Source: an uncultured virus (IMG/VR IMGVR_UViG_3300029319_000027) (taxonomy: Duplodnaviria > Heunggongvirae > Uroviricota > Caudoviricetes). Taken from it: a DNA stretch of 20,000 nucleotides. The DNA lies in the IMG/VR virus record IMGVR_UViG_3300029319_000027. One strand, given 5' to 3'. The position numbers were made by a program, and so were the translations under genes. This document shows, piece by piece, positions 3,128 to 15,859 of the stretch. Below the pieces are notes generated by a model. That model ran no database searches, had not been told where the DNA came from, and saw nothing but the letters and a program-made list of their open reading frames with translations. Position 1 is the stretch's first letter. The number at the start of each line of letters is the position of its first letter.

Positions 3128-3931
3128 TTAGCTTGAGACTGATTTCAACTTATAGCTAGAAAGTGCAGATTTCACAGACTGAATAGCTTCAGCCCTAGCT
3201 TTTGCTTTCCAATCTCCAAGCACTGCTAACTCACTTATTCTTGTAAGTTCATTAGGATTTTTATTTATTTCGTTAAATCTCTTTTGCCATTTCATGTAAC
3301 ATTTCTGATAAATTTTACATTGTCCCTGTAGTCCTGAATTAGCATGTGTGCTTCTGTAAAAGAAACTTGCAGGCAATAATCCAAGTTCAGGTAATGCACT
3401 GCAATGTTTTTCAGAAACAGTTGGTATTAAGACAATTCTTTTTTCATAATATTTTTGAACTGTTTTCTTATTGCAAGGAATACATCTTCTATTTCTTCCA
3501 TCAAGATATGATTTGTCAGGATAATAATGATCTATAGGTTTAATTTTTTTGCAAATATTACATTGTTTCTCAGCAGGGTTTCTTCTTTTATTATCTGCAT
3601 ATTCTAAAGCTTCATCTAACTGTGCTTGTAAGTACGGATATTCTTCAACCCATTGCATAAATGTAGTTTTTCCTAATCCATCAACAACTTGAAAAGTTCT
3701 TATAGTATTTAGAGTCCCCCTGCCATCCCTGATGTAAGCAATTACTTTAGATGCTGATACAGGGTTAAAATCTTTGACACCAGGCAGACCCATTTCGACA
3801 CGAAGCTGGCGAATTCTTTCTCTTGATACATTATATTTTTCTGCCCAAACTTGATTAAATGTATGAGGATTAGCTAAAACATCATGTTTTAATTGATTTA
3901 ATTCTTCTTCTCTAAGTTTCATCCATCCCAT
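3128..3931 (-). CDS. Multi-domain DNA-binding protein (sigma70 region-4-like HTH, second HTH-like segment, CxxC Zn finger)
   Basis: WAEKYNVSRERIRQL; GLGKTTFMQWVEEYPYL; KQCNICKKIKP...DGRNRRCIPC; followed by a degenerate second copy of the finger. Confidence 0.6.
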   Translation of the reverse strand: MGWMKLREEELNQLKHDVLANPHTFNQVWAEKYNVSRERIRQLRVEMGLPGVKDFNPVSASKVIAYIRDGRGTLNTIRTFQVVDGLGKTTFMQWVEEYPYLQAQLDEALEYADNKRRNPAEKQCNICKKIKPIDHYYPDKSYLDGRNRRCIPCNKKTVQKYYEKRIVLIPTVSEKHCSALPELGLLPASFFYRSTHANSGLQGQCKIYQKCYMKWQKRFNEINKNPNELTRISELAVLGDWKAKARAEAIQSVKSALSSYKLKSVSS

Positions 3932-5304: not shown

Positions 5305-5402
5305 AAAAAAGAAGATTTAGAAAAGAACTACATGAATGGACATATGAGGTAAATTGGAATCACAGTTTGCCTGTTTATGGAGATAAGAAAAAATTAAAAT
5401 AG
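5301..5402 (+). CDS. 33 aa ORF overlapping the start of the C5 methyltransferase frame
   Basis: ATGA overlap with the upstream stop; MKKRRFRKELHEWTYEVNWNHSLPVYGDKKKLK. Confidence 0.4.
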   Translation: MKKRRFRKELHEWTYEVNWNHSLPVYGDKKKLK

Positions 5403-6997
5403 GAAGTTTATTTAGTGGGATTGGGGGCTTAGACCTAGGTATCGAGCGTGGTCTAAAAGACTTTAATGCTGAGACTGTATGGCAAATTGAATTTGATGAA
5501 TACTGTTGTTCAGTTTTGGAAAAAAGATTCCCCAATTCTAAAGTTATTAATGCCGATATTAATGATGTAGACTTTACTAAACTAGAACCTGTCGATATTT
5601 TAATCGGTGGATTCCCATGCCAAAGTTTTAGTTACGCAGGTAACAGGAAAGGAATGAGTGAAGAAGATGAGCGAGGAATATTATGGTATCAGTTCGAACG
5701 AGCCATTAGCATTCTTAAACCAAAATGGGTTGTGGCAGAAAATGTCAGAGGACTCCTCACAGCAAAAGACAACGAAGGAAACAAAGGAGGAGCATTCGGA
5801 AGAGTTGTTTCTTTCCTTTCCGATAGGGGGTATAGTGTTGAATGGCAAATTGTATCAGCAGCCTCGGTTAATGCCTCGCACCTTAGAGAAAGAATCTTCA
5901 TCGTGGGAAACTCCGAACACTTTAGATCACTTGAAACCAAGGACGGGGGAAGCGTTGGAGAACGCACTCTACCGTGGGGACAAATCAAAAAAGAGCAAGA
6001 GGAAAAGTACAGGCAACTTGAGAGAGAATCCCAAGCTATGGTCAACTCCGAGAGCAAGTCAAGCATCGAAACCGATAAACAAACAAGCTCCCTCAGTGAA
6101 AGCAGGGAAGCACGGGTCGACATTGGAGATGGACATGGGGGAGAGGAATCCGAAATTGATTGGGAAAAGATTACACAGCAAGTGGGTCTCCCTTCTAATG
6201 GGTTTTCCCCAGGATTGGCAGGAAGATTAGGCTTACCTAATTATTGGACTTACAACAGAGATTTAATGTGGCGTACTCCCACAACAATGGATTCCAAATC
6301 AGGAGAAGATGCATTAAAGTACGCAACAAAATTACTACAAGGAAAAACACACAGAGCTTCAGGTCAACCGGTACAAATAACTTTGGCTGACCAAATAGCC
6401 ATAGACCAAATACACAAGAATCCTGATCTGTTCGAAAAATACAAAGACCATGAGATTTATAAAAGACCTAACCTACCTCCACAAAAAACTTTTGTTAAGT
6501 ACTTAAAAGATAATGTAACAAGGTCTACCTTATACGATGCACTAGATGTAAAGAAAACAACTATCGACCATTGGTTTAGAAATGATAAATACTTTTCATA
6601 TCCCTCAATGGAAGATTGGGAAAAACTAAAACCATATTTGAAAGTTATTAAATACGATGAAGAAATGACAACAATTGAAAGTTTTGAATGGCAAAAACAA
6701 AAATGGCAAACACCTTTAGTTACAAGCAGTAGACCTAGTACTAAACGAATAGCAGAAGGAATAAATCCAAAAGGGAATTTAGCAGAGAATCCTGATGTTT
6801 ATAAAGATGAATACATCATAGAACCATGGGAAACAGTTCCAAGGACAATAGAGGACGAGGAAAAGCGTGTAGATAAAATAAAGGCACTTGGGAACGCTGT
6901 AGTGCCTGCCTGTGCAGAGTTTATCGGCATTTGTATATCCAATGCCATAAAATTTAAAACAATTGTTTTTGACGCAGATATGTTAGAAGATTGGTAA
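5393..6997 (+). CDS. DNA (cytosine-5)-methyltransferase, main (alpha) frame; start uncertain
   Basis: The frame is open from 5387, upstream of the tracked TTG at 5516, and carries motif I GSLFSGIGGLD (from 5402), motif IV GFPCQSFS, motif VI ENV, motif VIII RERIFIVG and motif X ALGNAVVP. There is no in-frame ATG/GTG/TTG before motif I. Confidence 0.9.
   Translation: MKIGSLFSGIGGLDLGIERGLKDFNAETVWQIEFDEYCCSVLEKRFPNSKVINADINDVDFTKLEPVDILIGGFPCQSFSYAGNRKGMSEEDERGILWYQFERAISILKPKWVVAENVRGLLTAKDNEGNKGGAFGRVVSFLSDRGYSVEWQIVSAASVNASHLRERIFIVGNSEHFRSLETKDGGSVGERTLPWGQIKKEQEEKYRQLERESQAMVNSESKSSIETDKQTSSLSESREARVDIGDGHGGEESEIDWEKITQQVGLPSNGFSPGLAGRLGLPNYWTYNRDLMWRTPTTMDSKSGEDALKYATKLLQGKTHRASGQPVQITLADQIAIDQIHKNPDLFEKYKDHEIYKRPNLPPQKTFVKYLKDNVTRSTLYDALDVKKTTIDHWFRNDKYFSYPSMEDWEKLKPYLKVIKYDEEMTTIESFEWQKQKWQTPLVTSSRPSTKRIAEGINPKGNLAENPDVYKDEYIIEPWETVPRTIEDEEKRVDKIKALGNAVVPACAEFIGICISNAIKFKTIVFDADMLEDW
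5658..6230 (+). CDS. Nested alternative-frame ORF: putative beta subunit of the C5 methyltransferase (WxTP modules plus motif IX-like end)
   Basis: 190 aa open in a second frame inside the MTase; WETPNT and WSTPRAS modules; ends KRLHSKWVSLLMGFPQDW. Start could be GTG 5658 or ATG 5667. Confidence 0.7.
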   Translation: MKKMSEEYYGISSNEPLAFLNQNGLWQKMSEDSSQQKTTKETKEEHSEELFLSFPIGGIVLNGKLYQQPRLMPRTLEKESSSWETPNTLDHLKPRTGEALENALYRGDKSKKSKRKSTGNLRENPKLWSTPRASQASKPINKQAPSVKAGKHGSTLEMDMGERNPKLIGKRLHSKWVSLLMGFPQDWQED

Positions 6998-7048: not shown

Positions 7049-7597
7049 ATGACAAAAGGAGAAGGAAATTTTCACGGATTTAATCCAAATAGTAATGTAA
7101 ATAAATCCAAAGAATGGTACACACCAAGGAAGATAATAGATGCTTTGGGCTTACATTTCGATTTGGACCCTGCATCATCTGAGAAAGCAAATACGCTTAT
7201 TAAAGCAGATAATATCTTTACTAAAGAAGATGATGGGCTAACTAAAGAGTGGTTTGGTAAAGTATGGTTAAATCCACCATATGGAAAAGATACACCAATT
7301 TGGTTAGATTATGCTTTACAACAAATAGCAAAGAATGATGTAGAAGTTGTTTCTTTAATATTTTCTAGAACAGATACAAGGTGGTTTCATGATTTGTGTA
7401 CACAATTCAATATGCTTTGTTTTGTGAAAGGGCGTATAAACTTTATTGACGGTAATACAATGGAAAAGGGACAAGGCTCAACAAACGGTAGTTTGATTGT
7501 TGCTAGTGGACCTACAGTTGAACAAGCTGTACTAAATTCAGGTCTTGGGTACTGTGTGCAAAGATATCCACAGTATCAAGCATCTGATTTTATTTAG
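7049..7597 (+). CDS. Phage Dam-family DNA N6-adenine methyltransferase
   Basis: EWYTP...FDLDPAS...DDGL...W.GKVWLNPPYG...RTDTRWF...GRINF; AGGAGG RBS. Confidence 0.9.
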   Translation: MTKGEGNFHGFNPNSNVNKSKEWYTPRKIIDALGLHFDLDPASSEKANTLIKADNIFTKEDDGLTKEWFGKVWLNPPYGKDTPIWLDYALQQIAKNDVEVVSLIFSRTDTRWFHDLCTQFNMLCFVKGRINFIDGNTMEKGQGSTNGSLIVASGPTVEQAVLNSGLGYCVQRYPQYQASDFI

Positions 7598-8175: not shown

Positions 8176-8366
8176 TATTCATCAAAGGCTTTGCAAATCT
8201 TTAAGTAAAGATTTACCATATCATCTGCATCTTGTACAAGATTGATACCTTTGATACGCATGTAATTGAATTGTTTTAGAACCATTTCTTTAAATTGCTC
8301 GTCATCAATTAGTTCGTTTACTGCGTCTTCTCGTTTTGTCCCATCAGGGAATCTTAAGTCTTCCAT
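8175..8366 (-). CDS. Hypothetical protein
   Basis: 63 aa; TAATG-coupled on both sides. Confidence 0.7.
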   Translation of the reverse strand: MEDLRFPDGTKREDAVNELIDDEQFKEMVLKQFNYMRIKGINLVQDADDMVNLYLKICKAFDE

Positions 8367-9052
8367 TAGTCTAGTATACCTGCAGAAGTGAAGAATTGCC
8401 TCTTATATTTAGAAAGTGCCCTTTTCTCTTCTACTGTTAACAAATCTTGGCTAAACAATTCCATCGGAGATTCATATACAACTGAATAGTCTCCTATTTT
8501 TTCTTGTTTTACCATTTGGAATTTTGCATCAGAAGTATTATCTGATAAATGAGTTCCAACAGTTCCTGTGCTTTGTTGAGTTCCTAAACTTGCACTTGCT
8601 GCAAATAATCTAGCTGCAACTCTTGCACTGATGTACTTAATATCTTTTGGTACATCCTCTGCTGAACTTTCGCTATCTGAATAACCTGCAGAATAAACTA
8701 CAGTAATATTTTGTAACTTTGCATCTGACCATGTCTCTAATGCTGTTCTTCTCAATCTACCCAGGTTGGAATAAAGAACATAATCGTTTGAGTTTCCCTC
8801 AGAGAGGGCATTACCATCTTCGGTAACAGATGTTACTGATACTACAGGTGATCTAGATAAAAATAAATCTTCGGTATTGTCTCCATCGAATTTTTCGGTT
8901 ATTGAAGCTGTATAATCTAATTCGTAACCTACGAAGTTGTCTATGGCTTGGTCTGCTGTTGGTATAAATAAATTTGTAACAGTTGATTCATCAGTAGTAT
9001 TTAAATCAACGCCAAGCACTTTTTCGACATCGGAAACAGAAGAAAGTGCCAT
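8366..9052 (-). CDS. Head-tail connector / head completion protein (gp6-like)
   Basis: LSSVSDVEKVLG...AIDNFVGY...PVVSVTSV...ITVVYSAGY...VPKDIK...EKIGDYSVVY...LSKYKR; lies downstream of the capsid gene. Confidence 0.8.
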   Translation of the reverse strand: MALSSVSDVEKVLGVDLNTTDESTVTNLFIPTADQAIDNFVGYELDYTASITEKFDGDNTEDLFLSRSPVVSVTSVTEDGNALSEGNSNDYVLYSNLGRLRRTALETWSDAKLQNITVVYSAGYSDSESSAEDVPKDIKYISARVAARLFAASASLGTQQSTGTVGTHLSDNTSDAKFQMVKQEKIGDYSVVYESPMELFSQDLLTVEEKRALSKYKRQFFTSAGILD

Positions 9053-9060
9053 GTTAGGAC

Positions 9061-9330
9061 CTACTTATCTTCTTTTGGCTTAACTGCTTTTGTTTCTACT
9101 TTTTTCTTTGGAGCTGCTTTTTTTGCAGGAGCTTTTTTAGGAGCTGCTTTCTTCTTAGCAGGAGCTTTCTTGCCCCAACCTTGTTCTTTAAGCCACTCAG
9201 TAGGATATTCTTTTCCTGCTTTAGCGATTAAAGATGCACCTGATTTAGGTAGTTCTGATACAGGACCTTCCCAAATAGTACCATCGCTTAGTTTCCAAAT
9301 ACTTTTTTCTGGTTTTGTAAAATCTGACAT
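9061..9330 (-). CDS. Small protein with Lys/Ala/Pro-rich (histone H1-like) tail
   Basis: 89 aa; KKAPAKKKAAPKKAPAKKAAPKKK; AAGGA RBS. Confidence 0.7.
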   Translation of the reverse strand: MSDFTKPEKSIWKLSDGTIWEGPVSELPKSGASLIAKAGKEYPTEWLKEQGWGKKAPAKKKAAPKKAPAKKAAPKKKVETKAVKPKEDK

Positions 9331-9352
9331 TATTTTCCTTTTTTAATAATTG

Positions 9353-9393
9353 TAGTTTGAAAGGGGTAGGGTTGCTACCCCTTTCGTAAACTA
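9353..9393 (-). terminator. Hairpin / intrinsic terminator after the major capsid gene
   Basis: 11 bp perfect stem GAAAGGGGTAG (9359-9369) / CTACCCCTTTC (9375-9385), extendable by TAGTTT/AAACTA. Confidence 0.7.
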
Positions 9394-9412
9394 TCTAACA
9401 AATACTCCTAAT

Positions 9413-10669
9413 TTAGAAGTTTGTTATTTTGTGGAAAGCTGCTTGCCTGTAAACAGGGAAACCGACTCTCATTGTTGCTCTAATAGCGAGCTGATTCTTA
9501 ATAAAGAAATCAGAGTGGCTATCAGAAACAGCGATGTCCATTCCTTGTCTCATGACAACATGAGCTGCTTCTCCACCACCAAACTTACCGACAAGAACAG
9601 TGTTCTCAGCGATAGCTGTGGTTGGGACAACTTTTAATCCCCAAATGGATGCTACAGGAGCATTGCCCATGGCACCTGCTGCCATGAATAGTGGGACATT
9701 AGCTGCATATCCTGCAGATGAGTCTCCAGCAAATCCTGTTAAGGATGTTACTACTGTATTCCAATCGTTTGGATGCATAACTATTGCATCTGGTTCTGTA
9801 AATGCATTAACACGAATGTTTGTAATTGCACTATAAATCGCACCAACTCTACCTAAGTTACCATTGAACTCAGTTGAGTAGTTTGTAGAACCAACATTTG
9901 ATTTACCTGCGTCCAAGATACCTTCTAGGTTTGGAGCAGAACCGTCTCCTGAAAGGAGTTGGCTGTCCAAACGAAGTTTAATCATTGTTTGTAATCTTGA
10001 GTTTAAGTAACCTTGAATTCCAGCTTCATCAGCTAATAATTCATCAGTAACAGGCAAGAATACACCAAGTTTTCTGATGGATTCTGTGTTTTCTGTGAAT
10101 GCTAATGCACCTTCGCCAACGGCTGAACCTTCAGCAGCTTCTGCTGCGTTGTTTGTGAAGGTTGTTTCTTCCAAATAACTGAAAGAGTTTTGATCAGTTG
10201 TAATTTGGTCGAATAAGCCGATGACAGAATCAGGGTCTCTTAAAGCAGTCTCAAGAATACCTGGTTGTCTTAGGACCTCAGGTGGATAACCTGTGGTTGT
10301 TAATGTGGTTTTTGTTTCAAGATTGTTAGGAGCAAATTTTACTCTGCTGTCTACACCCTTGATACCACTGTCCTTATAATTTTTCCAAGCATCTGACTTA
10401 ACAAATTGCTCTCCAATTGTAAGGGTTTCATTCTCTGTTGGGAAATTGCTTGCTACAGGTTGTGAATCAGCATCAATAGCTTTTTCATTTTTCGCTTGAG
10501 CAGATTTAAGATTTACTTCTTCGACTAAAGAAGCGAGTTCTTCGTTTCTTTTTCCGATTTCATTCTTTTGCTCTGTAGAATATTTTCCATCCTCTGAGGA
10601 TTCAAATAATTCTTTTAGCTCAACTCTTTTAGCAGCTAATTTCTCACGGAGGTCTTTGATATCTGACAT
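9413..10669 (-). CDS. Major capsid protein, HK97 family
   Basis: Start moved to ATG 10669 (AGGAG upstream). Coiled-coil N-terminal delta-like domain; VGEGALAF...IRKLGVFLPVTDELLAD...LLSGDG...VMHPNDW...IWGLKVV...FIKNQLAIRATMRVGFPVYRQAAF. Confidence 0.95.
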   Translation of the reverse strand: MSDIKDLREKLAAKRVELKELFESSEDGKYSTEQKNEIGKRNEELASLVEEVNLKSAQAKNEKAIDADSQPVASNFPTENETLTIGEQFVKSDAWKNYKDSGIKGVDSRVKFAPNNLETKTTLTTTGYPPEVLRQPGILETALRDPDSVIGLFDQITTDQNSFSYLEETTFTNNAAEAAEGSAVGEGALAFTENTESIRKLGVFLPVTDELLADEAGIQGYLNSRLQTMIKLRLDSQLLSGDGSAPNLEGILDAGKSNVGSTNYSTEFNGNLGRVGAIYSAITNIRVNAFTEPDAIVMHPNDWNTVVTSLTGFAGDSSAGYAANVPLFMAAGAMGNAPVASIWGLKVVPTTAIAENTVLVGKFGGGEAAHVVMRQGMDIAVSDSHSDFFIKNQLAIRATMRVGFPVYRQAAFHKITNF

Positions 10670-10685
10670 TGATATTCTCCTATTG

Positions 10686-12053
10686 CTAAATTTCGTCTTC
10701 TTCTTCTGTTTCAGCAATTAATGAGTCTGCGATTGTTCTTTGAGTTTCCATGAGTAGAGACTCTAAATCTTCATCAATTTCATCAGTTGCCACTTCTTCA
10801 GTTACAGCTTCGACAGGAACTTCAACTTCTTCAATTACTTCAACTTCTGCTTCTGCAATCTCAGCTTCTTCAGTTTCTTCAACTTCTTCAACTGCGACTT
10901 CTTCAACTTCAGTTTCAACAACTTCTTCTGTCTCTGTATCCACATCGTCTACTTCAACTTCTTCTTCTACTGCAGTAGCAGTAGCTTCAGGAAGTGTTCC
11001 GACTTCTTCGATGATTTCATCAATCTCGGTCCATGCGTCATTCAAATCTTCACGGACTGCATTAAGTGCTTCGGTTGCCTTTTCTGACAATTTCCTACCA
11101 TCCTTTACTCGTAATAAGCCAATTGCTTTGGCTCGTACTATGAGGCTATCCAATGCAGCAAGCACATCTTTTACCTCTTCAGAGAAAGTCAACCCTGTCA
11201 AGCTAGGTGCCTTTCCTGAATCCTTTTCCTCAGATACATCATCTTCAGGAGTATCTGATTCTTCGACAATTTCCTCGCCCATTTCATCTTCAGGCTCTGG
11301 ATCATTTGTCTCAACATCTTTAATTTCTGTTTCTTCGTCAATAGATTTTCCTACTGCTTCTTCATACTCTTCATGTGTTTTACATGGCATAAATACTTCT
11401 TTGCCATCTACTTCATGAGTGTGAACGCCAACAGGACAACTTAATTCTTTTGACCTGTTCATAGCTTCAGCAGGATTATCAAAAGTATCTTTTGCATATG
11501 CTGCTTTTTCTTCTTCTACTGATTCAGTATCTACAACTTTTTGTTCCAATTCGTCTTTTTCTGAGGCTTCTTTAATAGCCATGGTATAGGTTTCTTGATT
11601 AGCACCAACTAGAACAGGGGAGACTTCGTAAACTGTTAAATCTTTGAGGTATCTTGCAGTTTCTTCTTCAGCATCAGCAGATTTTTGCCATTTGCCTACT
11701 TCTGAATCTTCAACTCTAAAACCAAAAGACCATTGTTGTAAATCGCCCATTGATTTGACTAAGTTATAAGCTTCTTTTCCTGCTTCAGTATCCATGAAAA
11801 AATTACCTTCAAAGGTAGCTTTGTCATTGTCTTGTTTAATTTTTCCTTTTCCAATAGGCATGTCCCATTTGTGAGACCAAACCATAGGAACATCGCCTGA
11901 TTTAAAACCTGACCTTACTGCTCCTGGAATGACAACATCGCCATCGCTATCTTTATTGTTGAATACTGAGAAAACTGCTTCTACAGCTCCCTTTTTAGAT
12001 TTTGATTTTTTAAGTTCTATTTCAAACTCTTTTTTTTCTTTTTGTTCGTCCAT
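10686..12053 (-). CDS. HK97-family prohead protease with long acidic C-terminal extension
   Basis: SVFNNKDSDGDVVIPGA, MVWSHKWDMPIG, QWSFGF, LTVYEVSPVLVGAN; AGGAG RBS; 455 aa. Confidence 0.93.
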   Translation of the reverse strand: MDEQKEKKEFEIELKKSKSKKGAVEAVFSVFNNKDSDGDVVIPGAVRSGFKSGDVPMVWSHKWDMPIGKGKIKQDNDKATFEGNFFMDTEAGKEAYNLVKSMGDLQQWSFGFRVEDSEVGKWQKSADAEEETARYLKDLTVYEVSPVLVGANQETYTMAIKEASEKDELEQKVVDTESVEEEKAAYAKDTFDNPAEAMNRSKELSCPVGVHTHEVDGKEVFMPCKTHEEYEEAVGKSIDEETEIKDVETNDPEPEDEMGEEIVEESDTPEDDVSEEKDSGKAPSLTGLTFSEEVKDVLAALDSLIVRAKAIGLLRVKDGRKLSEKATEALNAVREDLNDAWTEIDEIIEEVGTLPEATATAVEEEVEVDDVDTETEEVVETEVEEVAVEEVEETEEAEIAEAEVEVIEEVEVPVEAVTEEVATDEIDEDLESLLMETQRTIADSLIAETEEEDEI

Positions 12054-12075
12054 AACTCCTATACCTCTTCCTTTT

Positions 12076-12106
12076 TATAATAACGCAAAAAATGGTCGAT
12101 TGTCAT
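12076..12106 (-). promoter_or_regulatory. Candidate internal promoter for the protease-capsid genes
   Basis: Minus strand ATGACA-N18-TATTAT in the portal-protease intergenic gap. Confidence 0.4.
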
Positions 12107-12112
12107 ATATTG

Positions 12113-14557
12113 CTAATTAGTGTGTCCTAATATCTCTTGTGCCTTTTTGTTACGAGCATTAACTTTCTTTTTTTGCTCATTGACAAGTTTTTTCATTTCT
12201 GAAACACCACCTGTTGTAACTCCACCCCACTTCATAACTGCAATAGCACCATTCAATCTATTATTATTTTTATGACGATTCATAAAGCGTTCTCTTCGTT
12301 TTACCCAAGAAAGCACAGAAGCTGATCTATCGCCTGCTTTATACTTTGTCCATCTGTTAAAAGCATCATTGCCTGTAAATGCAGTTGGTGGGTTACCACC
12401 TGTTCCTGCTCTTCTCCAAATGGTTGGGTAATTTTCTTTTAAATCTTTTACATAGTTGTAGTCAGGGAATTGTCTGTACTGAGAGTTGCTCAAACTAATT
12501 TTTTGATTGTCTCCTGATTTTGGAAAGTTTGTAATTTTATCTTTCTTTTCTGATTTACGCCAATCTTTAATTTTTTGTAATTTAGAAATTGGCTGTGTAA
12601 CATTTCTATCTGTTTTTTTATGAGAACCGTCATCCATGATTGCCCAAACATTCATTGTTGCATTTTCTTTAGAAACAGAAACAACAACACCGTGAACTGT
12701 TGATGGTGGGTCTGGGTCTTTATTTATTGACCAACTAACTGTATCTCCAACACTTACAGAACTAGCTTTACTGTTCTCAGGCTCTATCTCAAAAGACTGT
12801 TCATATAAAGTTTCTGCCTCTTCTGTAGATACTTTTAGTTCTTCAATACCTCCTGATTTCTTAGAAGATAATGGATGTCCAGCAGGGAGCAGGTCTTGGT
12901 CAAAAGGCTTGCGTGGGAATCTTCCCTTTAATCCCTTAATAAAGGCATTAACCCGGGCTAATCCCCATTGGGTAGCACCTGTTACATTACCTCTTACCGA
13001 AGATGGATTTGTTCGATAAGCACCTACTCCTCTCCTGAACACTGCAGCTAACATTCTATAGTTAGCTCTGTACTTAGGATTCTTTGCGTTATGGTCTTTT
13101 ACTTTCTTTTGAAGACTCTTTTTGACTTTTGCAGAAATAGCAGTTGATTTTAGTCTTGTTGGTTTTTCAACAATTTTAGGACTTCTTTCGCTTTCAACAC
13201 TTGCACCTTCAGTAGTCAATACATCTTTTAGTTCAAAAGATTTTTCAGGGAGTATAGGGTTTGCGTAATCTTCTTCTTTTGTAGGTTGTAAGTTTAATGG
13301 TCTTAGATAAACTGAATGGTCATCACTAGCATCTAAGCCAACTGCTTTTCTAGCTTCTCCAACTGTTATCCAACCACCTTGAACACCTGTGTTCATTCTC
13401 TTGAATACTTCAGACTTATCTGCATCTAGTGCTCTAACTTCTCCTAGATCATACTTACAAACAAGTTTTGTATCTGAAGTAAAGTCTGCTTGTAATAGCT
13501 GAGATGTTATTTCATTAGCAACTGTTTGCCATAAAGGAATTAATTTTTGCTCAGTAAAAAATTCTCTAAGCTCTCTCGTGTTATTGTAAGTAGCAGCTTC
13601 AAGACCTGCACCTAATCCTGCAAGAATAGCAGGAACACCAAGAACAGCAGAAACTCTTTCTTCAGGAAGTCTTCTTAGTTTATTTAAATTTAATTGTTCA
13701 GGAGACCATGAAACTACTTTGACATCCATAGAGCCTGTAAGAATCATAGGAGCTCCTCTGTTTGCTCCACCGAATTTTTGTTTGTAAATCTGTGCGATAG
13801 CTTCTGCTTCATCTTTTGAAGGACCACCCATAGAGTCATCTTTTGGAGAAAGTATCACTCCTGGTACAGCCATGTTATGCAAAAGGGCTGCTGCATATTG
13901 CCCTGCTGCTTCGTCTCCTAAAATTTCTCTTAACACAGATTTAAGGGGAGCAAAACCTTTTCTGTGGTCATTTGGGTCTATTCCTTGTCGGATATGTACT
14001 ACCTCACTAGCAGGTATAACTTGAAATTCGTTTATTGATGTACTTCGTTCTTTTACATAATATTCATAATGAGTTATGAGTTGTTCTTCATTACCTCTAG
14101 GTTTTACATAACTTGGAAGCAATGGAACTAATTCAACAACCCTGCCACTTCTTGCACGATTCTTGAATAAGTATGCATCTCCTGTTGCATTCAAGGCTGT
14201 AATAATATAGTTCGCTAGTAAAGAACCTGATGTATATTGATTTGGTCTTGTAAGTAATTGATTTACAGGATGGTCTTCTTGTTCAACCATTTCCCCGTTT
14301 TCTCTTTTGTAAACTTTTAATGATGGTTCAGCGAATGATGTGGATAAAACATTTAGACATGCAACAACTGCTGAGTTACCTGTGCCGTCTCCAACTTCTT
14401 GTAATTTTTTATCTGGAAAATATCCTGAACTTGTATTGTATCCATACACTAATGGATCAACACCTAGTGATTGATTATAGTTCAAGCCTTTAACCCTTTC
14501 GGGTGGTGCTTGCAAATATTCTACAAACCTTCTAAAACGAGACTTATCCTCTGCCAT
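12113..14557 (-). CDS. Portal protein (HK97 family) with about 390 aa multi-domain C-terminal extension
   Basis: NSAVVAC, HPVNQLLTRPN, TGDAYL, ELVPLLPSYV, EVVHIR, GFAPL, PGVIL, VLGVPAIL, TYNN, WITVGEARKAVGL; abuts the terL stop; 814 aa. Confidence 0.93.
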   Translation of the reverse strand: MAEDKSRFRRFVEYLQAPPERVKGLNYNQSLGVDPLVYGYNTSSGYFPDKKLQEVGDGTGNSAVVACLNVLSTSFAEPSLKVYKRENGEMVEQEDHPVNQLLTRPNQYTSGSLLANYIITALNATGDAYLFKNRARSGRVVELVPLLPSYVKPRGNEEQLITHYEYYVKERSTSINEFQVIPASEVVHIRQGIDPNDHRKGFAPLKSVLREILGDEAAGQYAAALLHNMAVPGVILSPKDDSMGGPSKDEAEAIAQIYKQKFGGANRGAPMILTGSMDVKVVSWSPEQLNLNKLRRLPEERVSAVLGVPAILAGLGAGLEAATYNNTRELREFFTEQKLIPLWQTVANEITSQLLQADFTSDTKLVCKYDLGEVRALDADKSEVFKRMNTGVQGGWITVGEARKAVGLDASDDHSVYLRPLNLQPTKEEDYANPILPEKSFELKDVLTTEGASVESERSPKIVEKPTRLKSTAISAKVKKSLQKKVKDHNAKNPKYRANYRMLAAVFRRGVGAYRTNPSSVRGNVTGATQWGLARVNAFIKGLKGRFPRKPFDQDLLPAGHPLSSKKSGGIEELKVSTEEAETLYEQSFEIEPENSKASSVSVGDTVSWSINKDPDPPSTVHGVVVSVSKENATMNVWAIMDDGSHKKTDRNVTQPISKLQKIKDWRKSEKKDKITNFPKSGDNQKISLSNSQYRQFPDYNYVKDLKENYPTIWRRAGTGGNPPTAFTGNDAFNRWTKYKAGDRSASVLSWVKRRERFMNRHKNNNRLNGAIAVMKWGGVTTGGVSEMKKLVNEQKKKVNARNKKAQEILGHTN

Positions 14558-15859
14558 TTAGTACGCTACCCACTCTCTCTTATTATTTAAGTTTAACACT
14601 CCATATGCTAGCGTGTCGACAATATCGTCATGGCTACCTACAGGAAAAGTAATTAGCTCTCTTTCTGCTTCTCCAACCCAAGTTGCCAATTCATCATCAG
14701 GAAAGTATATTTGTCCACTTTCAAACTTTGCAGACAATGGCATAGCTCTTGACCTTTTATCTTTATCTGCTTTTAATTCTTTTACGACAATTCCTTCTCT
14801 TTGAGCAAACTGTACAATAGCAAGCTGATAACCTGCTCTTTCAATTCCTACCCAAGACAATTCGTTGTCATAAAATATTTTTTTAAGAGTTGGAATAATA
14901 TCAGGAGCTTGCAATCTGTCTCTAAACATATCAGTAACAAAAAGATTGTTAGTTGCAGAATCATGAGCAAAAGAAGTTATGACTGTATAGTCAGCAGAAT
15001 CTTTTGTTGACACAGCCAAGTCAACTGTAGCAAACTTGTGCATGTCATCCATAAGAAACTCATCGTTTCCAATCTTACAACTTCTGACACCAGGCTTATA
15101 GTATTTAAACCAATCAGCTTTGAAAATTTGAGTTGTCTCATTTACAAACTCTGCTTCATACTCTTGAGCAAAAGTTATTGAGCCTAGTTCAGCTTTTGCA
15201 GATTCTATTTCTTCAGGATCAATTCTTGGATTAGCAATTGTTGGAAATTTAAATCTTTCCCAATCTTCTTTGTTTTCTGAATCAACCCACAATCTGTAAA
15301 ACCAATTGTTCATACCACGAGGTGTAGAAATAAATAATGCAGAACCTTTTCTTTCAGTAAGAGTCGGTCTTAAAACTTCTGTCCATGTTTCTTCTTTAAC
15401 AAAGGCAGCCTCATCCATAACTAGGAAATCAAGACCTTCTCCTCTAAGTCTTTGTGGATTGTCAGCAGATTTAACAGCAATAAAACCACCATCAGGAAAG
15501 TTAACAACCATATCGCCAACTTTGATATCTACTTTGATTCCTGTAAGTTTTGAAGATGCGTTTAATATATCACGCCAACCTACACGAGCGATAGAAAAGG
15601 TTGGAGCAACCCACCATGCTCTTTTACCATTTAGGGCATGCTCCATAGCCATTTGTACACCAAGTCTAGATTTACCAAATCTTCGACCGGCACACAGTAT
15701 TTTCCAACGAGCTTCTGAGTCGTGGACTTCTTGTTGAGATGGGTATAAGGAATCTTTAAAAGAAATCTTTTTTTCGGGCTTCTCTTCTTTATCAGCTAAA
15801 ACTTTATCAGCAGCTAAATTTAAGAACTTCCCATCACTAAAGGTATTTATTCCTGCCAT
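14558..15859 (-). CDS. terL: Terminase large subunit
   Basis: Walker A AGRRFGKS, Walker B LRGEGLDFLVMDEAAF, ISTPRG, QEYEAEF, and nuclease motifs VDLA...ADYT...HDDIVDTLAY. Confidence 0.97.
   Translation of the reverse strand: MAGINTFSDGKFLNLAADKVLADKEEKPEKKISFKDSLYPSQQEVHDSEARWKILCAGRRFGKSRLGVQMAMEHALNGKRAWWVAPTFSIARVGWRDILNASSKLTGIKVDIKVGDMVVNFPDGGFIAVKSADNPQRLRGEGLDFLVMDEAAFVKEETWTEVLRPTLTERKGSALFISTPRGMNNWFYRLWVDSENKEDWERFKFPTIANPRIDPEEIESAKAELGSITFAQEYEAEFVNETTQIFKADWFKYYKPGVRSCKIGNDEFLMDDMHKFATVDLAVSTKDSADYTVITSFAHDSATNNLFVTDMFRDRLQAPDIIPTLKKIFYDNELSWVGIERAGYQLAIVQFAQREGIVVKELKADKDKRSRAMPLSAKFESGQIYFPDDELATWVGEAERELITFPVGSHDDIVDTLAYGVLNLNNKREWVAY

Follow-up and report, generated by a model that had tools for sequence, protein, structure and literature searches.

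The stretch of DNA considered here, 20,000 nucleotides from an uncultured virus of the Caudoviricetes (IMG/VR record IMGVR_UViG_3300029319_000027), which in its entirety will be called the window, carries on its forward strand, at positions 5387-6997, a gene of the C5 cytosine methyltransferase type, the main frame of which, here called alpha, is open from 5387 and runs for 536 codons. Wholly inside this gene, on the same strand and in the frame one base downstream of the main one (+1), lies a second open reading frame (ORF), here called beta, which occupies positions 5658-6230 and consists of a GTG start, 190 codons in all, and a stop. A sequence-only reading of this DNA had already drawn attention to the nested ORF, and the ORF listing contains it as described.

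Alpha matches the Pfam family PF00145 in two stretches (expectation value, E, of 1.4e-39) and the DNA methyltransferase families of PHROGs, and over 1200 homologues, all of them metagenomic, are found for it at E 1e-10 or below; dozens of these are full-length, with 40-98% identity. Motifs I, IV, VI, VIII and X of the C5 methyltransferases are all present in the chain: motif I is FSGIGG (5411-5428), nearly invariant in the alignment of homologues (A1); motif IV is GFPCQ (5609-5623), which holds the catalytic cysteine, and motif VI is ENV (5738-5746), both invariant in A1; motif VIII is HLRERIF (5879-5899), with H165, L166, R167 and R169 invariant; and a C-terminal element (6821-6907) extends from EPWETVPR (6821-6844) through motif X, GNAVVP (6890-6907), with W481, E482, P485, R486 and L501-P507 invariant. 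By pattern search, motif IX is absent from the main frame and present in the +1 frame only, as the sequence-only reading had held, a very degenerate motif IX near EPWETVPR being possible. The least conserved part of A1, rich in insertions and deletions, goes from motif VIII to residue 283. The main-frame reading of the beta core (5909-6211), which can be termed the alpha linker, is poorly conserved, predicted to be disordered, and free of stops. When alpha is modeled alone, a confident catalytic domain, a helical module, for the most part confident, at residues of about 306-437 and a motif X helix are obtained, with a predicted local distance difference test (pLDDT) score below 50 in the linker over residues 179-305. 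A Foldseek search with the model of the N-terminal domain recovers M.HhaI and M.HaeIII (E 1e-12, over about 175-205 columns).

The beta ORF overlaps alpha motifs VI and VIII, an overlap that had also been reported before, and ends in the residues ...RLHSKWVSLLMGFPQDWQED. Its core (5904-6227) contains two W-x-T-P units, WETPNT (5904-5921) and WSTPRAS (6039-6059), followed by RLHSKWVSLLMGFPQDW (6168-6218), the candidate motif IX. The likeness of this end to a C5 motif IX, at first noticed by eye, appears likewise when profiles are compared: with hhalign, using a profile of 35 nested proteins (A3) and another of single-chain enzymes (A4), the end of beta aligns over 44 columns with the motif IX of the single-chain relatives (RRLTPxECERLQGFPDDW) at a probability of 85% and E 6.4e-6. 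The PHROGs family phrog_1008, "DNA methyltransferase", matches beta residues 24-190 (E 8.5e-10). The identity of the motif is fixed because the same motif type precedes motif X in one frame in two relatives, the locus L035 and the mycobacteriophage PeaceMeal1 (L003), in the latter of which a +1 ORF holds the variable region, motif IX and motif X. Direct BLASTP comparison of beta with this mycobacteriophage ORF is uninformative (E 0.18), and with L035 it recovers the motif IX stretch only (E 0.003).

The sequence-only reading had supposed that, in AT-rich DNA, stops should have interrupted a frame of this length. In tests of 5000 trials each, where the statistic was the longest +1 open stretch (190 codons observed), permutation of the codons of the whole gene gave a mean of 61 codons and shuffling of synonymous codons a mean of 55, with no trial reaching 190 in either case, and seven trials reached it when the codons were permuted only locally; the longest open stretch of the +2 frame is 49 codons. 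Chance is rejected by the permutations, as had been supposed, but "AT-rich" is too simple a description of the stretch, which is poor in T (16.6% in 5906-6230). Since this T-poor composition leaves the antisense frame open too, for 183 codons from stop to stop (5689-6123 on the reverse strand, 144 amino acids from its ATG, with no Pfam match), the openness of the frame is, on its own, weak evidence, and the case for beta is carried by comparative evidence; the antisense ORF itself is most likely a by-product of the doubly coding, T-poor stretch and lies outside the system. The converse test is also informative about the main frame: after synonymous shuffling of the beta core, the alpha frame remained free of stops in seven of 5000 trials for the window, and in none of 5000 for each of the relatives L008, L009 and L011, in which the overlap is of about 300 codons. 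The alpha frame is actively kept open over the beta core.

To establish which frame is under selection, nine loci of the window type were compared, namely that of the window and those of its eight nearest relatives in IMG/VR (L004-L011), together with one record that is 99% identical; the tests rest on these because a scan of metagenome contigs for close relatives gave one near-identical contig only. The figures for codon positions are fractions of differing bases between pairs of these 9 sequences, and, as the pairs are related, they are descriptive and should not be read as probabilities. In the parts that code for alpha only, the fractions at alpha positions 1, 2 and 3 are 0.32, 0.19 and 0.52 (5387-5657) and 0.37, 0.31 and 0.60 (6830-6990), in such a way that the most variable base is the third position of the main frame; over the overlap 5906-6227 the most variable base becomes the third position of the nested frame, with 0.20, 0.13 and 0.46 at beta positions 1, 2 and 3. 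Over the same bases the amino-acid identity among the nine loci is 0.78 for beta and 0.43 for alpha, and the window compared with each relative is 69-93% identical in beta and 21-58% in the alpha reading. The 99% identical virus record (L088) differs from the window in 22 of 1801 bases; just two of these differences fall within 5658-6230, both silent in beta and both altering an alpha residue, and 16 of the 19 in sequence coding for alpha only are silent. Purifying selection on the second frame, which the earlier reading had proposed to look for, is thus found where the main frame does not have it, by codon positions, by identities and in L088, and the pattern as a whole indicates that both frames are maintained by selection, each being under purifying selection where it carries conserved sequence.

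These comparisons bear directly on the supposition that the nested ORF has no function and is only what a T-poor, purine-rich composition leaves behind, or the trace of a frameshift error in a gene that is decaying. The low T content, the open antisense frame and the lack of an ordinary start codon in the gene, which is considered below, would be in its favor, but the permutation tests, the third-position variation that tracks the nested frame, the conservation of beta, far better than that of the alpha reading of the same bases, the presence of the same sequence on three independent contigs, and the recurrence of the layout in 59 of 80 relatives whose compositions differ widely make this explanation exceedingly improbable.

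The constraint is not limited to the beta core. At identical alpha residues, synonymous differences amount to 0.19 over 5660-5903, as against 0.48 and 0.53 in the alpha-only parts, and this fall suggests that 5660-5903 is constrained in both frames; the doubly constrained overlap (5658-5903) would comprise alpha motifs VI-VIII and the N-terminal part of beta, about 80 codons selected in both frames. The idea that the N-terminal part of beta is a meaningless leader was not fully accepted, given how strongly the synonymous variation of alpha is suppressed there; the similarity of this part among distant relatives is in some measure a mirror of conserved alpha motifs read out of frame. Motif IX, on which the sequence-only reading had centered, is only a small part of what beta carries: there are two W-x-T-P units besides, and its N-terminal part is coded by the same bases as alpha motifs VI-VIII.

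The region in which beta would be initiated (5645-5669) consists of AGGAAAGGA (5645-5653), formed by the Arg-Lys-Gly codons of alpha, a +1-frame stop, TGA (5655-5657), immediately before the GTG at 5658, and an ATG at 5667. In all nine loci of the window type the beta frame has its first ATG 43 or 49 bases past the codon for the PCQ cysteine, behind an AAAGGA(G)-like stretch, and in other clades the nested frame begins about 50 bases before PCQ, behind GAAGGAG or GAGGAGG. These sequence features point to a separate initiation of beta, probably at GTG 5658 or ATG 5667.

The start of alpha is of another kind. Upstream of motif I there is no ATG, GTG or TTG in the alpha frame, and the ORF as listed begins at TTG 5516, that is, past motif I, the frame itself being open from 5387. 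The probable start (5379-5395) would be formed by GGAG (5379-5382), 10 bases, and ATT (5393-5395); a mini-ORF of six codons (ATG 5377 to TAA 5397) overlaps it, and a run of six A occupies 5388-5393. The same arrangement is present in two further contigs (L084 and L088), an ATT is also found behind AAGGAG in the relative L006, and alpha relatives at 98% identity have an ordinary Met start. Initiation at ATT 5393 is a probable reading of these signals, and slippage on the A run is another possible way in which the lack of an ordinary start could be made good.

If the gene is read from the main frame to +1 and back to the main frame, the canonical order of motifs I-VIII, variable region, IX and X is obtained, and the motif IX codons of the window include G GGT TTT, a possible -1 slippery heptamer. 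It could therefore be proposed that a single chain is made through two programmed frameshifts, +1 after motif VIII and -1 after motif IX, and that beta is not a separate gene. The heptamer, however, occurs in only two of the nine window-type loci; the main frame is free of stops over the whole beta core, against the expectation from the shuffling tests given above, something a frameshifting gene would not need; the beta frame is open, with synonymous variation suppressed, for some 80 codons upstream of the would-be shift site, and at its beginning a conserved ATG follows a Shine-Dalgarno-like stretch; and the return after motif IX leaves 220 more conserved residues in the alpha frame, at a spacing that is not canonical. 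With a slippery site that is not conserved and a bypassed frame that is kept open, a programmed frameshift gene was rejected as a candidate, and we regard it as very unlikely.

Other phages share the layout. Of the 573 relatives confirmed in a scan of IMG/VR, the best 80 divide as follows: in 59 the motif IX pattern falls in a nested +1 ORF, with a motif X further downstream in frame 0; in seven it is in frame 0; in three it is in +1 with no frame-0 motif X; and in the remaining 11 the pattern search gave no match to motif IX. The +1 frame exceeds the +2 frame in length at every one of the 59 nested loci (medians of 272 and 50 codons). The second frame, which the earlier reading had thought should be free of stops in homologues, is therefore nested and open in 59 of 80 viral relatives. 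A tblastn search with beta residues 130-189 matched Paenibacillus and Bacillus phages (E 1e-6 to 4e-5), in the +1 frame within annotated methyltransferase genes of 250-260 residues. That gene callers would miss beta proved correct for the most part, with 18 database proteins matching beta versus more than 1200 for alpha, but it does not hold for some GenBank records of Paenibacillus phages, which annotate both: in Paenibacillus larvae phages such as Tadhana, which by tblastn belongs to the same family, both members of the nested pair, genes 54 and 55, are entered as DNA-cytosine methyltransferase, gene 55 (504-1208 of L086) lying inside gene 54 (302-1372) with an offset of 202 bases, equivalent to +1. 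The alphas of these P. larvae phages are short (about 260-360 residues) and without the helical module discussed below. In the portion of the P. larvae phage genome paper that was available, the two methyltransferase genes appear in a table and a two-chain enzyme is not discussed, and in the open-access literature searched, phage methyltransferases with a nested beta are nowhere described as widespread.

Other relatives have their own arrangements. In the single-chain relatives L025, L036, L063 and L080 (about 1500-2470 in each) motif IX is in the main frame, and the +1 frame over motifs VI-VIII is open well beyond VIII and alike in all four (...CSLSDILE...KYFLS), which could be a mirror of conserved main-frame codons or a further nested gene. 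The locus L035 (1459-2493) is a hybrid, whose +1 ORF has three L-L-P-T-P units and ends before motif IX, with motifs IX and X in the main frame. In PeaceMeal1 (L003, 1495-2488) the +1 ORF is open from 1841 and has two L-P-T-P units; the annotated start of gene 75, at 2069, is downstream of the first of these units and may for this reason be too late.

At the level of predicted structure, the alpha and beta chains modeled together give a complex score of 0.84, and the best of three controls 0.00, in runs with a contact agreement of at least 65% and a partner pLDDT of at least 57. The mark used for this score is reached by 116 of 157 solved complexes and two of 215 mismatched pairs, rates that hold only roughly here because the authors' own alignments were used. 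In the model, beta 170-188 (motif IX) contacts alpha 493-508 (motif X), 12-17 (motif I) and 43-47, so that alpha 481-508 is a predicted interface with motif IX of beta, and beta 56-63 contacts alpha 150-161; the two products of the bases that are selected in both frames are thus predicted to touch. Co-folding, which had been suggested as a check on the nested frame, places motif IX against motifs I and X and agrees with an association of the two chains.

A further feature of alpha is module M (6269-6715), of about 150 residues, with a W-x-T-P unit and a helical domain (HWFR at 6569-6580), over which, at alpha residues of about 306-437, the block-mean pLDDT is 51-94 and mostly 68 or more. No Pfam family matches it, and its Atlas matches are just hypothetical viral proteins with scores below 0.9. 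In the beta-frame protein of L009 there is a segment that shares 54% identity (E 1e-54) with module M (alpha residues 294-443); in L008-L011 (for example L009:1760-2884) the module lies within a beta of about 380 codons, and the alpha reading there is low-complexity filler. From this match it follows that the module is a part of alpha here and a part of beta in sister phages, and the W-x-T-P units are found in either frame. It is conceivable, and we put it forward tentatively, as something less probable than its contrary, that the overlapping frames serve as a platform on which recognition modules are shuffled between two subunits.

The nearest known parallel is M.EcoHK31I (E. coli HK31, YGGCCR), for which the available parts of the published accounts describe a beta chain encoded wholly in another frame of the alpha gene, an alpha with motifs I-VIII, X and the recognition domain, and a beta with motif IX (PMC2836561; PMC3404938). 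According to the same sources, its beta has internal start codons and does not need its first 42 residues in vitro, alpha alone is inactive (PMC2836561; PMC3404938), and in vivo methylation was lost when the beta start codons were removed through mutations that are silent in alpha (PMC2836561). The locus of the window resembles this system in having beta wholly within the alpha gene, on the same strand and in another frame, and in having motif IX in beta and motifs I-VIII and X in alpha, a likeness drawn on layout and not on sequence. It is unlike it in several respects: in M.EcoHK31I, as far as those accounts go, the target-recognition domain is in alpha and only motif IX in beta, whereas here beta adds two conserved W-x-T-P units; the N-terminal part of beta appears here to be itself constrained; alpha has a 150-residue helical module that is placed in beta in sister phages; and it is a phage gene that adjoins a Dam-like gene, with no restriction-enzyme family detected among the 18 ORFs scanned in the window. 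The essential difference from M.EcoHK31I is therefore the sharing of the variable region between the chains.

M.AquI (CYCGRG) is also a two-subunit C5 methyltransferase (PMC3404938). In what is available on it, as in two-gene "DNA methylase" pairs of mycobacteriophages such as genes 76 and 75 of PeaceMeal1, the enzyme is split after motif VIII and the second chain has the variable region and motif IX, and in PeaceMeal1 the second frame is also +1, overlapping the end of the first gene. In both, however, it is the second chain that has motif X, the first gene ending after motif VIII; here the alpha frame holds motif X (6890-6907), with beta wholly nested, which sets the locus apart from the M.AquI type. 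With the single-chain M.HhaI and M.HaeIII (PDB 2z6u, 3ubt, 1dct) the N-terminal domain of alpha shares its fold, but these are one polypeptide and their variable region is unrelated in sequence.

Taken together, the layout in 59 of 80 relatives, the selection in both frames and the co-fold favor the two-chain phage methyltransferase that the sequence-only reading had proposed, and 5387-6997 very probably encodes an M.EcoHK31I-like alpha/beta DNA (cytosine-5) methyltransferase, made as two polypeptides from overlapping frames. Alpha would be the catalytic large domain, with motifs I-VIII, a disordered linker of about 100 residues, the helical module of the variable region, and motif X, where the linker would be merely the out-of-frame reading of beta. 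Beta would begin separately, at the internal Shine-Dalgarno-like site made of the Arg-Lys-Gly codons of alpha, and would contribute two W-x-T-P units of the target-recognition region as well as a motif IX that would dock on motifs I and X of alpha and in this way complete the small domain. The two chains would then associate, as the model predicts, and, by analogy with M.EcoHK31I, both would be needed for methylation.

A number of points weigh against this interpretation. The case that beta is translated is drawn entirely from comparison of sequences, and the selection statistics come from nine related sequences with non-independent pairs. The motif IX assignment depends on a short profile alignment and a motif pattern; Pfam gives no family for beta, either as the whole ORF or as the core, PF00145 fails to detect it, and its profile finds only a chance match among PDB sequences (E 0.23). 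Among longer proteins no in-frame fused form of this beta type was found, which is weak evidence, and for lack of such a form the homology of the W-x-T-P units to characterized recognition domains is not established. The start signal of beta is not ideal, with four bases from AAGGA to GTG and 13 to ATG, and alpha is without an ordinary start codon, which makes it uncertain that this phage expresses the enzyme. Modeled alone, beta has a mean pLDDT of 56.5 and a predicted template modeling score (pTM) of 0.22, too poor for a fold search, and in the complex its pLDDT is only moderate (58-62). The success of the complex, moreover, may be the model's memory of the solved single-chain C5 methyltransferases, because these pack motif IX against motifs I and X, in which case it would speak of likeness and not of binding.

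Finally, alpha has variable-region units of its own, and beta might for this reason not be strictly required. Beta could then be real and selected and yet modulate specificity, stabilize or regulate alpha, or act alone, while alpha methylates without it; the W-x-T-P units and the well-folded helical module that the alpha of this clade has in its own frame, the conserved EPWETVPR immediately before its motif X, and the hybrid L035, which keeps a nested beta-like ORF although its motifs IX and X lie in the main frame, would all fit with this. We consider it unlikely nonetheless, in view of the missing motif IX pattern in the alpha frame, the predicted position of the beta motif IX at the site that motif IX has in the single-chain enzymes, against motifs I and X, and the loss of methylation that the available part of the M.EcoHK31I account reports for alpha without beta (PMC2836561).

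As regards its surroundings, the window is part of the genome of a marine tailed phage, with the genes for terminase, portal, head protease, major head protein and adaptor at 8366-15859. Directly 3′ of alpha, on the forward strand, is a Dam-like N6-adenine methyltransferase gene (7049-7597; PF05869, E 4e-23; phrog_111), and with this gene adjoining alpha the phage has two orphan-looking methyltransferases side by side. For an ORF of 267 amino acids on the reverse strand (3128-3931), PHROGs gives weak matches (E 1e-7 to 1e-8) with endonuclease VII and a Lar-like restriction alleviation protein.

If both chains are needed, most phage C5 methyltransferases of this family would stand in annotations as a single enzyme whose middle part makes no sense, and a DNA-recognition subunit would be missing from the protein databases, where 18 proteins match beta and more than 1200 match alpha. 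The lack of a beta annotation would then distort the prediction of specificity, the interpretation of methylomes and the study of how phages escape restriction. The overlap is unusually long and deeply conserved for a DNA phage, with 190 codons in the window and, in sister phages, about 380, and the selection that can be measured in both frames makes it a good model for the origin and persistence of overlapping genes. That module M has changed frame between sister clades provides, in turn, a natural experiment on the exchange of recognition modules, and, if the tentative idea of a platform were true, specificity would be built from parts able to hop between the reading frames, and hence the polypeptides, of a single gene around an unchanging catalytic core.

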